In this document: piece by piece, positions 24,052 to 28,742 of the stretch
Layout of the letters: the number at the start of each line of letters is the position of its first letter
How positions within the stretch are numbered: the first letter of the stretch is position 1
NCBI GenBank assembly: GCA_000092065.1
Contig: CP000585.1
From: Ostreococcus lucimarinus
Taxonomy: Eukaryota
DNA: 64,000 bases
Reading direction: 5' to 3' (one strand)
The notes under the pieces: generated by a model
The model's input: the letters and a program-made list of their open reading frames with translations, nothing else
What the model was told of the DNA's origin: nothing
Databases searched by the model: none
Program-made: the position numbers and the translations under genes

Positions 24052-24462
24052 TTACGCGCGCTCACCTCGGATGCGGCGGGCGAGTTGGACGTCCTTCGGC
24101 ATGATGGTGACGCGCTTGGCGTGGATGGCGCACAAGTTCGTGTCTTCGAACAAGCCGACCAAGTACGCTTCGGACGCTTCTTGGAGCGCCAAGACCGCGG
24201 AGGATTGGAATCGCAAGTCCGTCTTGAAGTCTTGCGCGATTTCGCGGACAAGGCGTTGGAACGGAAGCTTGCGGATCAAAAGTTCGGTGGACTTTTGGTA
24301 CTTGCGGATTTCCCGAAGCGCGACGGTACCCGGGCGGTACCTGTGCGGCTTCTTGACGCCGCCGGTCGCCGGGGCGGACTTGCGGGCCGCCTTGGTGGCG
24401 AGTTGCTTGCGCGGGGCCTTGCCACCGGTGGACTTACGGGCAGTTTGCTTCGTACGGGCCAT
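24052..24462 (-). CDS. H3: Histone H3
   Basis: [136 protein letters not shown] is a complete, canonical 136-aa H3. Confidence 0.97.
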
Positions 24463-24591
24463 TTTTACTGTGAGATTCGCGAGGAATTGTGACGCGCGCG
24501 CGCCGCGATCGCGCGGCTTCTTCGCGCGACGCGTGAGGCGATTTCTCATCGGCGAGGGACTCACAACGGTTCACGACTCGTCAAATGCGCG

Positions 24592-24608
24592 ATTTCCGCG
24601 TTTCGCGC
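24592..24608. promoter_or_regulatory. Two adjacent E2F-like motifs (ATTTCCGCG and TTTCGCGC) about 130-145 bp upstream of the histone H3 start
   Basis: The sequence gcgcgatttccgcgtttcgcgcattt is read directly. TTTCGCGC matches the E2F consensus TTTSGCGC. Its location in the H3 5' flank fits S-phase regulation. GC-rich background raises the chance of a coincidental match. Confidence 0.3.
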
Positions 24609-26692: not shown

Positions 26693-26786
26693 CGCGCGCG
26701 CGTCGTCGCGCGCCCGCGCCGCGCGTCGCGCCGCGCCGCGTTGTGAAGACGAATCGACACCGCGACGACGTCACATCTCGACGACG

Positions 26787-28742
26787 ATGCGCGACGACGA
26801 CGCCGCCGCGGGCGCGCCGCGCGCGCTGCGCGAGGCCAACGCGCGCGACGCGCCCGTCGCCGTGAGGTACGCGCGGAAACGGCGCGACGCGCGGCGCGGG
26901 ATGGCGGCGAAGAGCGACGGGGGGACGAAGCGCGACGCGACGACGGCGCGAGACGACGGACGCGCGGGGCGCGCGCGCGACGACGCGCGGGACGCGACGG
27001 ACGCGACGACGACGAACGACGCGCGAGCGACGACGACGACGGCGCGCGACGACGCGCGAGGCGAGGCGAACGCGCGAGGGTTGGAGATCGTGCGCGAGGC
27101 GCTGGAGGCGGCGGACGCGGCGACGGATGCGAAACCGACGACGACGACGACGACGGCGGCGACGGTCGGGAAGCGCACGTTCGTGTTCAAGTCGAGGAAT
27201 AAATTATTCAGGAACGCCAAGGCCGAGAGGGAGCATCGGGCGAGATTGGCGAAGTTGGCGGAATCGAGAGCGTTCTTCGACGACGTGGATGACGAATCGC
27301 TCGCGGAGGAGAGCGAGGAGGCGACGCCGAAACGAGGGGCGGCGATGGGAGATCGTTTAGTGATGAGCCCGAATGGATTGATAGAGGCGTTGCAAGGATT
27401 GGGATTGGTGGATAACGCCCCCGAGCTCAGGGCGAAGATGGAGACGAAGAGAAGGGAGCCTACGGCGTCGGCGCCGCGCGCCGAGACGCTGCCGAGCGGT
27501 CGCGAGAACGCGTTCGATCGAGTGTCCAACTGGGTGTCGTCGCTTCCCGTGTTTACGCCACTCAAGGAAGACGTCGCCGTCGAGTCGCGCGGGGAGAACC
27601 GAAAGGACGAAGAGGACGAGGAAGAGTCCATCGCCGAAACCGAGGACGAGCTGGAAAGCTTGAACGAGGACGTCGAACGACTCGTCATCGACGACGAATG
27701 CTCGCCACTCGCCGCACTTTTGCGCGCGTGCGATCAGAACGAACAAAACGTCGGCTCGATGTCGTCTCTCATCAAGTCTTACGTCAAGCACGGTGTGAAA
27801 AAGATTGGCGAAGGGACGTACGGCGAGGCTTACCGAGGAGAAGACGGCGTCGTGATGAAAATCGTGCCGATGGGCGGCGATGCCTTGGTCAACGGCGAGG
27901 TTCAGATGGGTCCAGGCGAGATTCGTTCGGAAACTTCCATCTTAAAGGCACTCACGGCGTTGCGTGACCACGAAGCGGATGAAAACGCGAAGAATTTCAC
28001 CGACGGTTTCATTCGTCTTCTCGACGCGTCGGTGTGCCGAGGTCCGTATTCAAAAAAGCTACTCGAGGCGTGGGACAAGTACGCATCCACGGGTGCGAGC
28101 GAGAACGAAAAGCCCGATGATTTGCCGAGTAATCAATTGTACATTTCGTTCGCGTGCGACGATGGTGGGACAGACTTGGAACATTTCGAGCTTCGATCGA
28201 TGACGGAAACAGTCGCCATGCTCTTCCAAATCGTCGTCGCCTTGTCCGTGGCCGAAGAGGCGAGTCAGTTCGAGCACAGAGATTTGCATTGGGGTAACGT
28301 TCTCATCAAACGTACTCGCACGAAGCAAAAACGCGCCAAACTGAACGGGGTGGAGCTGAACATCCAAACCTCTGGCTTGGACGTCACGATCATCGACTTC
28401 ACCCTGTCTCGCCTCACCACCGAAGACGGCGACGCGTTTTGCGACTTGAACGCCGACCCCGAGCTTTTCGCGGGACCGAAAGGTCACTGTCAATCGGAAA
28501 CGTACCGTCGAATGAAACGAGTCACCAAGGGCAAGTGGAACAAGTACTGCCCGAAGACCAACGCGCTGTGGCTGCACTACTTGGCGGATACGGTTTTGGA
28601 GCAAAAAGATTTCAACGTCACCGCGGAGGACAAACAGCGACTCGTCGCGTTCCGAAAGCGAGCGCTCGACTACAAATCTGCGGGCGAAATCGTGTTCGAC
28701 GAACTCTTCTCCGGCATCTGGACTTCTGGAAAGAAGAACTAA
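26787..28742 (+). CDS. HASPIN: Haspin (histone H3 Thr3 kinase)-like atypical protein kinase
   Basis: The C-terminal kinase domain has a Gly-loop KKIGEGTYGEAY and the haspin-specific catalytic segment FEHRDLHWGNVLI (human FEHRDLHWGNVLL). It also has DFTLSRL in place of DFG, plus an inserted helix. The N-terminal half is basic/acidic low-complexity. Confidence 0.7.
   Translation: MRDDDAAAGAPRALREANARDAPVAVRYARKRRDARRGMAAKSDGGTKRDATTARDDGRAGRARDDARDATDATTTNDARATTTTARDDARGEANARGLEIVREALEAADAATDAKPTTTTTTAATVGKRTFVFKSRNKLFRNAKAEREHRARLAKLAESRAFFDDVDDESLAEESEEATPKRGAAMGDRLVMSPNGLIEALQGLGLVDNAPELRAKMETKRREPTASAPRAETLPSGRENAFDRVSNWVSSLPVFTPLKEDVAVESRGENRKDEEDEEESIAETEDELESLNEDVERLVIDDECSPLAALLRACDQNEQNVGSMSSLIKSYVKHGVKKIGEGTYGEAYRGEDGVVMKIVPMGGDALVNGEVQMGPGEIRSETSILKALTALRDHEADENAKNFTDGFIRLLDASVCRGPYSKKLLEAWDKYASTGASENEKPDDLPSNQLYISFACDDGGTDLEHFELRSMTETVAMLFQIVVALSVAEEASQFEHRDLHWGNVLIKRTRTKQKRAKLNGVELNIQTSGLDVTIIDFTLSRLTTEDGDAFCDLNADPELFAGPKGHCQSETYRRMKRVTKGKWNKYCPKTNALWLHYLADTVLEQKDFNVTAEDKQRLVAFRKRALDYKSAGEIVFDELFSGIWTSGKKN

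Follow-up and report, generated by a model that had tools for sequence, protein, structure and literature searches.

We analyzed a 64,000-nucleotide stretch of the genome of Ostreococcus lucimarinus CCE9901 (assembly GCA_000092065.1, contig CP000585.1; hereafter the window), in which a histone H3 gene, a gene for a SET-domain protein and a gene for a Haspin kinase lie side by side. The H3 gene (24052..24462, minus strand) is an open reading frame (ORF) of 136 aa (Pfam Histone, E=1.6e-48), the SET/post-SET gene (24728..26692, minus strand) is an ORF of 654 aa (Pfam SET, E=1.2e-9), and the Haspin gene (26787..28742, plus strand) is an ORF of 651 aa (Pfam Haspin_kinase, E=1.1e-50). A GC-rich spacer of 94 bp (26693..26786, assigned to no strand) separates the start codons of the divergent SET and Haspin genes. 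A preliminary description of this locus had proposed that the placing of a substrate gene next to two of its writers may reflect co-regulation in S/M phase. When the three ORFs were confirmed and their ends checked directly on the sequence, the coordinates, strands and spacer length given in that description were exact to the base.

We found that the gene order is H3-SET-Haspin, with an intergenic region of 265 bp between SET and H3. The statement that H3 is flanked by SET and Haspin therefore holds on the SET side only; the second neighbor of H3 is a gene for a DHX37-type helicase, and Haspin lies two genes from H3. Beyond Haspin there is a small fn3-like ORF (28828..29262, minus strand, 144 aa). 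It is convergent with Haspin, with 85 bp between the two 3' ends, and is followed by a Misato-like gene. The possibility of a larger histone cluster was rejected, as H3 is the sole histone gene in the 64 kb. Since the same arrangement is seen in independent JGI and ENA contigs of O. lucimarinus and in the reference chromosome 5 of O. tauri, an assembly artefact is excluded.

Identity of the three proteins

The kinase can be assigned to the Haspin family by its domain score and diagnostic motifs. It scores 173.2 bits against Pfam PF12330 (cutoff 25) and matches the human Haspin kinase domain with E=3e-59 over residues 337-636 (nt 27795-28694), while the N-terminal ~300 residues are of low complexity and variable. 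The diagnostic segment cited in the preliminary description is present: the catalytic Lys lies in VVMKIV, HRD in FEHRDLHWGNVLI, and DFT, in place of DFG, in IIDFTLSR(L), and these align to VAIKII, FEHRDLHWGNVLL and IIDYTLSRL of the human protein. The O. tauri Haspin is 75% identical. The protein shares with known Haspin (GSG2) kinases of animals, fungi and plants (PF12330; human structures 2VUW and 3DLZ; Arabidopsis AtHaspin, PMC3113928) the match over the full kinase domain, the catalytic Lys, HRD in FEHRDLHWGNVL, DFT for DFG, a long disordered N-terminal region and, in its O. tauri ortholog, expression with mitotic genes. As a protein it is ordinary; what sets it apart is where its gene lies, head-to-head with SET and two genes away from H3, an arrangement seen only in part of the Ostreococcus clade.

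The H3 protein keeps T3, the established target residue of Haspin kinases, as well as K4, K9, S10, K27, S28 and K36, and carries the signature A31/Y41/S87/L90. This signature has been named "H3.1A", and O. lucimarinus has two such genes, one H3-like gene and CenH3 (PMC4357034). With its 136 aa and intronless gene, the protein corresponds to the canonical, replication-dependent form.

An exact look-up identified the SET protein as NCBI XP_001418071.1, a "predicted protein". Its Pfam SET match reaches 39 bits (cutoff 22.4) over residues 112-282 and contains a long insertion, as in a split SET domain. The motifs NHSC (NHSCDPN), EITIAYG and post-SET FDCACAQC are intact and align to SMYD3. The SET and post-SET catalytic region spans residues 112-314 (25751..26359, minus strand), with N245, H246, S247, C248, Y281, C306, C308 and C311 invariant. 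Besides the split SET domain and the post-SET cysteines, the protein has an acidic and Ser-rich linker and a conserved, predicted helical C-terminal domain. This C-terminal half (~320-654) is conserved among orthologs as strongly as the catalytic domain and has the invariant motifs DHWQ, TLEN and HPDVLAWN.

A PDB search with the single sequence matched only the SET-C/post-SET part, with SMYD3 as the best entry (6.6e-7). With the ortholog profile, SMYD3 (8e-16) was followed by SMYD1, SMYD2 and Toxoplasma AKMT, and later by KMT5B, MLL and ASH1. No orthology to the SET1, SUV39, E(z), ASH1 or SET2 classes was found, the profile E-values being 1e-5 or worse. When 1.8 billion representative proteins were searched with the profile, nine had E<1e-30, and all nine are Mamiellales-like; the other matches cover just the ~80-residue SET-C/post-SET core, and the next-best are generic SET-only proteins. 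The MYND zinc finger of SMYD proteins was not detected: there is no zf-MYND match at E<=0.01 and no CxxC cluster in residues 138-232, and the same holds for all orthologs.

An AlphaFold model built from 10 sequences had a mean predicted local distance difference test score (pLDDT) of 49 and was discarded. A second AlphaFold2 model from 18 sequences (pLDDT 61, predicted template modeling score 0.58) was used for coarse fold assignment only. In it the SET core has pLDDT 75-91, and six long helices are predicted in residues 438-645 at pLDDT 60-85. The top ~36 Foldseek matches in the PDB were SMYD2, SMYD3 and SMYD1, then AKMT, with E-values down to 3e-9. The alignments to SMYD1-3 run over ~540 columns, essentially the whole target chain, yet the TM-scores are just 0.3/0.45.

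Taken together, we classify the protein, by sequence and predicted fold, as a SMYD-like lysine methyltransferase without MYND, in a separate family found only in Mamiellales-like algae. It resembles SMYD1/2/3 and Toxoplasma AKMT in the split SET domain, in NHSCxPN, ExxxxY and post-SET FxCxCxxC and, according to the model, in an all-helical C-terminal domain. It differs from SMYD1/2/3 in having neither the MYND finger nor a cysteine cluster between SET-N and SET-I, and in its long acidic/Ser-rich linker and its own C-terminal motifs, found only in Mamiellales-like sequences. The preliminary description had argued that SET proteins methylate H3 tails. For this gene the argument need not carry over: among the PDB entries found for its SMYD relatives are complexes with peptides of p53, ER-alpha, MAP3K2 and VEGFR1, none of them histones, and H3 specificity is therefore not to be assumed.

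SET is linked to histone genes in every sampled lineage

To compare SET loci, we scanned JGI metagenome contigs with the SET-ortholog alignment and placed histone and Haspin genes by tblastn. The sample comprises ~57 loci from at least seven lineages, with SET identities of 27-100% and GC contents of 0.51-0.71. In every contig that is long enough, the next gene 3' of SET is a core histone gene, H3 or H4, which lies 209-752 bp past the SET stop codon. There is no counterexample to this adjacency among the ~57 loci. Throughout this algal order, it is the SMYD-like gene, and not Haspin, that constantly accompanies histone genes. This is a new result; the literature searched contains no mention of a SET-histone linkage or of these protein accessions. 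The shortness of the SET/Haspin spacer, the collinear gene order among Ostreococcus species and the annotation of all three genes in two published genomes are ordinary.

We found two main arrangements on the histone side. In core Ostreococcus, SET and H3 are in tandem (SET> H3>), 246-310 bp apart. In the other lineages, H4 is convergent with SET at 209-363 bp (752 bp in one), followed by a divergent H3 where the contig continues, and one Micromonas-like lineage (L051) has H4 alone beside SET. The same SET> <H4 (H3>) arrangement is present in GC-rich Micromonas-like contigs whose SET is just 27-39% identical. The one apparent exception (L050) is a contig that breaks off within the C-terminal part of H4, directly past the histone hairpin described below.

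Within the genus, chromosome 5 of O. tauri (L011; SET CAL54141, Haspin CEF98084) and a third Ostreococcus species (L007) have the identical H3-SET-Haspin order. Conservation of the trio at this level reflects background synteny only, because the whole block of at least 13 genes is collinear. A lineage with 47% SET identity (L009, L022, L045) has the order Haspin< SET> <H4 H3> <DHX37, and SET> <H4 H3> <DHX37 is also present in L048. Here the H4-H3 pair (L022 12304-13414; L048 1841-2907) fills the SET-DHX37 slot that holds H3 alone in the window (24052-24727). The presence of a divergent pair in the same slot in outlying lineages indicates that the H4 copy was lost in the O. lucimarinus/O. tauri lineage. 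The simplest history suggested by these gene orders is an ancestral SET> <H4 H3>, from which H4 was deleted in that lineage.

Divergent H3-H4 pairs are familiar from yeast (HHT/HHF) and from the histone gene pairs of Chlamydomonas and Volvox. The ancestral algal locus is like those of fungi and green algae in that its H4 and H3 are head-to-head, ~390-410 bp apart, and have common promoter motifs. It differs from them in the non-histone SET gene that stands constantly tail-to-tail with H4, and in the reduction of the pair to a lone H3 in core Ostreococcus.

Two further observations concern the contigs themselves. Many metagenome contigs (L026-L059) break off in the histone gene 3' of SET or directly before it, which is consistent with histone coding sequences, near-identical across strains and species, acting as assembly-breaking repeats. 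At the end of one contig (L010 12290-12666), the starts of two H4 genes lie opposite each other in a perfect inverted repeat of ~300 bp, either a real head-to-head duplication of H4 or an assembly artefact at a repeated gene.

The Haspin-SET pair is confined to part of the Ostreococcus clade

The pairing of Haspin with SET has a much narrower distribution than the linkage of SET with histone genes. We found it in part of the Ostreococcus clade only. In GC-rich Micromonas-like contigs, the neighbors of Haspin are an H+-pyrophosphatase gene and a gene for a protein with fn3 and CS domains, and no SET or histone gene occurs within 8-10 kb of it. One Ostreococcus-level lineage preserves both flanking blocks, DHX37-H3-H4-SET on the left (L048) and Haspin-fn3-Misato-L34-Cab-TFIIF-Cytb5-DEAD-TP_methylase on the right (L014). 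SET, though, adjoins TrpA-side genes in L010 and a lipoxygenase gene in L017, and the gene beside Haspin in L014 is unrelated and encodes at least 481 aa. With both blocks intact and different genes abutting SET and Haspin, the breakpoint falls exactly at the SET/Haspin junction. In another Ostreococcus clade (L033-L041), ~2.6 kb separate the two genes; the insertion (L033 ~3166-5790; likewise L035, L036, L039 and L041) includes an ORF that matches no Pfam family and whose N-terminus is F-box-like (LLDDVWMIICEKV...). The head-to-head Haspin-SET pairing is young and unprotected. The comparison of Mamiellales gene orders that the preliminary description called for thus upholds the SET-histone part of the arrangement in every lineage, down to 27% identity, and goes against the Haspin-SET part, which is found unlinked, broken or interrupted.

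The adjacency of Haspin and the fn3-like gene provides a control for these comparisons. In Micromonas-like contigs, the convergent partner of Haspin is the protein with fn3 and CS domains (302-314 aa; L012 9619-10563 and L015 3752-4660), and its N-terminal part is homologous to the fn3-like ORF of the window (E=2e-8 and 3e-15). Haspin and its fn3 neighbor have thus been adjacent for as long as SET and the histone genes. Two of the five adjacencies compared between Ostreococcus and Micromonas-like contigs survive, both of them convergent pairs. The CS domain seems to have disappeared from the Ostreococcus version of the fn3-like protein.

In Micromonas-like contigs the gene divergent from SET encodes a conserved protein of ~600-665 aa without a Pfam domain (L050 3221-5065, L057 2886-4880 and L053 1802-3664, all on the minus strand), and the next gene encodes an iron-containing alcohol dehydrogenase. 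We considered this divergent partner as another chromatin gene, an idea that its lack of any Pfam domain and its position beside the dehydrogenase gene leave unsupported.

Signals at the H3 gene

Histone mRNAs of metazoa end in a 3' stem-loop processed in dependence on SLBP (stem-loop-binding protein) and U7, and such stem-loops have also been described in some protists and green algae. We identified a hairpin, GGUGUU-CAUUUC-AACACC, 60 nt past the H3 stop codon (23974..23991, minus strand), with the 5' flank AAAAU and the 3' flank ACC. It is the sole hairpin of its kind in the window, with a predicted dG of -7.6 kcal/mol. A hairpin of the form GGUGNN-loop-NNCACC, with an A-rich 5' flank and the 3' flank ACC(A), follows the stop codon by 54-130 nt in all 31 Mamiellales-like H3/H4 3' regions that have enough downstream sequence (31/31). 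Further sites are L011 5192-5209, L007 12624-12640, L022 ~12194-12210 and ~13480-13510, L051 ~2168-2190 and L050 ~7384-7402. The stem occurs in three variants, UU/AA, AU/AU and UC/GA, each fully compensated.

The hairpin is probably this lineage's version of the histone mRNA 3' stem-loop, judging from its position and covariation. Like Rfam RF00032 (Histone3), it has a 6-bp stem opening with GG and closing with CC, bordered by A-rich sequence on the 5' side and by ACC(A) on the 3' side, it is placed just past the stop codon of all H3/H4 genes examined, and its stem shows compensatory changes. It differs from RF00032 in the stem (GGUGUU/AACACC vs GGYYYU/ARRRCC) and in the loop, which has 5-10 nt instead of 4, with one exception. 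In a search of 131 nt, RF00032 scored 10.9 bits at the site (E=4.3), below its gathering score of 34, and a search of 6.5 kb around the locus gave no match to RF00032 and nothing at threshold. A literature search returned no useful account of SLBP in Ostreococcus. The hairpin supports the assignment of the H3 gene to the replication-dependent type. A covarying 3' hairpin on all examined Mamiellales H3/H4 genes bears on the prediction of histone mRNA 3' ends in genome annotation and on how the green lineage evolved stem-loop-dependent processing of histone mRNAs.

Upstream of the H3 gene we found a proximal element, CGTCACAATTC (24484..24494, minus strand), 22-32 nt before the ATG. The hexamer CGTCAY is position-fixed in this order, at -21 to -35 from the ATG in 18 of 20 Mamiellales H3/H4 promoters (loci outside the window include L032, L037-L040, L047 and L048). 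A candidate E2F site, TTTCGCGC (consensus TTTSSCGC; 24601..24608, plus strand), lies in the 265-bp SET-H3 region, ~140 nt before the H3 ATG, and is unconserved in most other histone promoters. Several histone promoters also carry TGTAAACAATC, with 10 occurrences against ~0 expected, and CCAAT boxes. CGTCAY, TGTAAACAATC and the CCAAT boxes may be lineage-specific histone promoter modules.

The SET/Haspin spacer

The preliminary description had taken the 94-bp spacer between SET and Haspin as a possible sign of co-regulation. This length is ordinary, because neighboring divergent pairs on the same chromosome are 21 bp (RimM/DHX37), 39 bp (fn3-like/Misato) and 93 bp (DEAD/TP_methylase) apart. Orthologous SET/Haspin spacers range from 94 to ~580 bp and are unalignable between species. 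Compared with a co-regulated bidirectional gene pair, SET and Haspin have the head-to-head orientation and the short spacer, while neither the pairing nor the spacer is conserved. Across 16 lineages, the M-phase-specific activator element (MSA; YAACGG), E2F sites (TTTSSCGC / WTTSSCSS), ACGTCA and CCAAT occur upstream of SET at background frequency. In size, sequence and motif content alike, the spacer gives no sign of co-regulation.

A search of the spacer itself (26693-26786) found no known cell-cycle motif. Its sole similarity to the H3 promoter is CGTCACATCTC (26769..26779, plus strand), 8-18 nt upstream of the Haspin ATG, which resembles the histone proximal element. The pattern CGTCACAWYTC that covers both has two sites in the 64 kb, at -22 to -32 of the H3 ATG and at -8 to -18 of the Haspin ATG. 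CGTCAY is found upstream of just 3 of 30 window genes, compared with the 18 of 20 histone promoters. We give this similarity little weight, because the pattern was derived post hoc and the Haspin copy CGTCACATCTC is kept in the closest relative only.

Expression in O. tauri

Published light/dark microarrays of O. tauri name Haspin among the mitotic genes that peak at dusk (PMC2850359). Haspin and a SET gene of the SMYD class (KOG2084), which fits and may be the SET gene studied here, are both in the mitotic cluster BFC71, in files that list array features by number only (PMC2850359, Additional files 5 and 7). A "histone H3.2" probe, which is not mappable to this H3 locus, is in the S-phase cluster 122 (PMC2850359). 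On these data, all three genes could be expressed in step with the cell cycle, though in two waves that follow one another and not as one unit.

Discussion

The gene orders and signals above are accounted for best, in our judgment, by a history in two steps, which we hold to be probable though far from settled. In an ancient first step, a Mamiellales-specific SMYD-like gene would have been placed tail-to-tail with a replication-dependent divergent H4-H3 pair, a linkage unbroken in the sampled lineages. In core Ostreococcus (O. lucimarinus, O. tauri and relatives), deletion of H4 would then have produced the SET> H3> tandem. In a recent second step, the block carrying the Haspin gene would have come head-to-head with SET in the Ostreococcus clade. 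Each gene likely has its own promoter. From the histone-type proximal element and the stem-loop-like hairpin, we infer that H3 is expressed in S phase; Haspin, and probably SET too, would be expressed at G2/M, according to the published arrays and a presumed correspondence of the KOG2084 feature to this SET gene. As part of the same account, the trio would probably be a neighborhood of separately transcribed chromatin genes with a cell-cycle flavor, and not an operon-like module of a substrate and its writers. The interpretation given in the preliminary description is thereby supported in part: the SET-histone linkage is old, but the Haspin linkage and the spacer do not speak for co-regulation.

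Selection offers another explanation. The SMYD-like enzyme might be a dedicated H3/H4 methyltransferase kept beside the histone gene by selection, which Haspin later joined in a coordinated S-to-M program; a common cell-cycle chromatin domain, or 3'-end or antisense interplay with the histone gene, would be possible means. We regard this as unlikely, yet several observations weigh in its favor and against the two-step history. The far flank of SET changed at least three times (Haspin, lipoxygenase, TrpA-side genes, the ~600-aa protein) and took up one insertion, while the histone flank never changed in at least seven lineages, even though its content was remodeled (H4 and H3, H4 only, H3 only) and H4 or H3 was singly lost. 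This asymmetry hints at constraint over pure inertia. The presence of a KOG2084 SET gene in the mitotic cluster of Haspin could mean true co-regulation of the head-to-head pair in O. tauri, and the Haspin upstream region has the CGTCAC hexamer of the histone promoters, at -18, in common with H3. The comparative sample also has its bounds: the label "Micromonas-like" was assigned to metagenomic lineages by GC content and protein similarity alone, and the survey covers SET orthologs with a contig placement, which leaves out the Bathycoccus-like ortholog (P0143). Moreover, the catalytic motifs of SET are invariant, and SMYD1-3 are deposited as histone-lysine methyltransferases. On the other side, structures of the SMYD family were solved with non-histone peptides, and AKMT is an enzyme of the cytoskeletal apparatus. 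SET and H4 are ancestrally convergent, so no common promoter is possible. The Haspin linkage was repeatedly lost or interrupted, no conserved motif lies upstream of SET, and the H3 probe is in another expression cluster than Haspin and SET. The convergent Haspin/fn3 control pair has been kept as deeply, and neutral retention of the SET-histone linkage therefore stays plausible. Between selection and neutrality for this linkage, we lean slightly toward the latter.

At the other extreme, the three genes may be unrelated, their adjacencies persisting because breakpoints rarely hit very short intergenic regions. The tiny distances (21-94 bp in divergent pairs, 85 bp in Haspin/fn3), the collinear block of at least 13 genes among Ostreococcus species, the equal age of an unrelated convergent pair and the failure to find a conserved regulatory motif all fit such a coincidence. 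We nevertheless consider it improbable, and more so than selection. All three products act on, or are, the chromatin of dividing cells, and Haspin clusters with a SMYD-class SET gene in the published arrays. The other flank of SET was rearranged several times despite similarly short intergenic distances. With two canonical H3 genes in the genome, the chance of H3-SET-Haspin would be ~1e-3; about 1 in 1000 genomes would be expected to show, by chance, two chromatin-modifier genes following a canonical H3, a rough and loose figure from a comparison chosen post hoc.

What the locus would mean depends on which of these accounts applies. It is doubtful, although conceivable, that the Mamiellales SMYD-like gene is held by selection at the H4-H3 pair as a cell-cycle-timed writer on new or mitotic H3/H4, with Haspin recruited in Ostreococcus; if so, this would be a rare eukaryotic histone locus carrying its own modifier gene. 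If functional, the SET-histone linkage would give a direct pointer to what this order-specific lysine methyltransferase of the smallest free-living eukaryotes acts on, and would offer a compact natural system for the timing of histone supply and marking through S and M phase. In O. tauri, genetic manipulation is feasible and light can be used to synchronize the cell cycle. If the linkage is neutral, "a substrate beside its writers" in gene-dense genomes needs a synteny control before it is read as co-regulation.

Antisense reading frames

Spurious antisense ORFs of 100-300 aa overlap the real genes of the window, among them 24011-24637 (plus strand), 26325-26774 (minus strand) and 26771-27688 (minus strand). 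ORF length is a poor guide to coding in this GC-rich region, and the real frames were told apart by the contrast between GC content at third and second codon positions (GC3 vs GC2).

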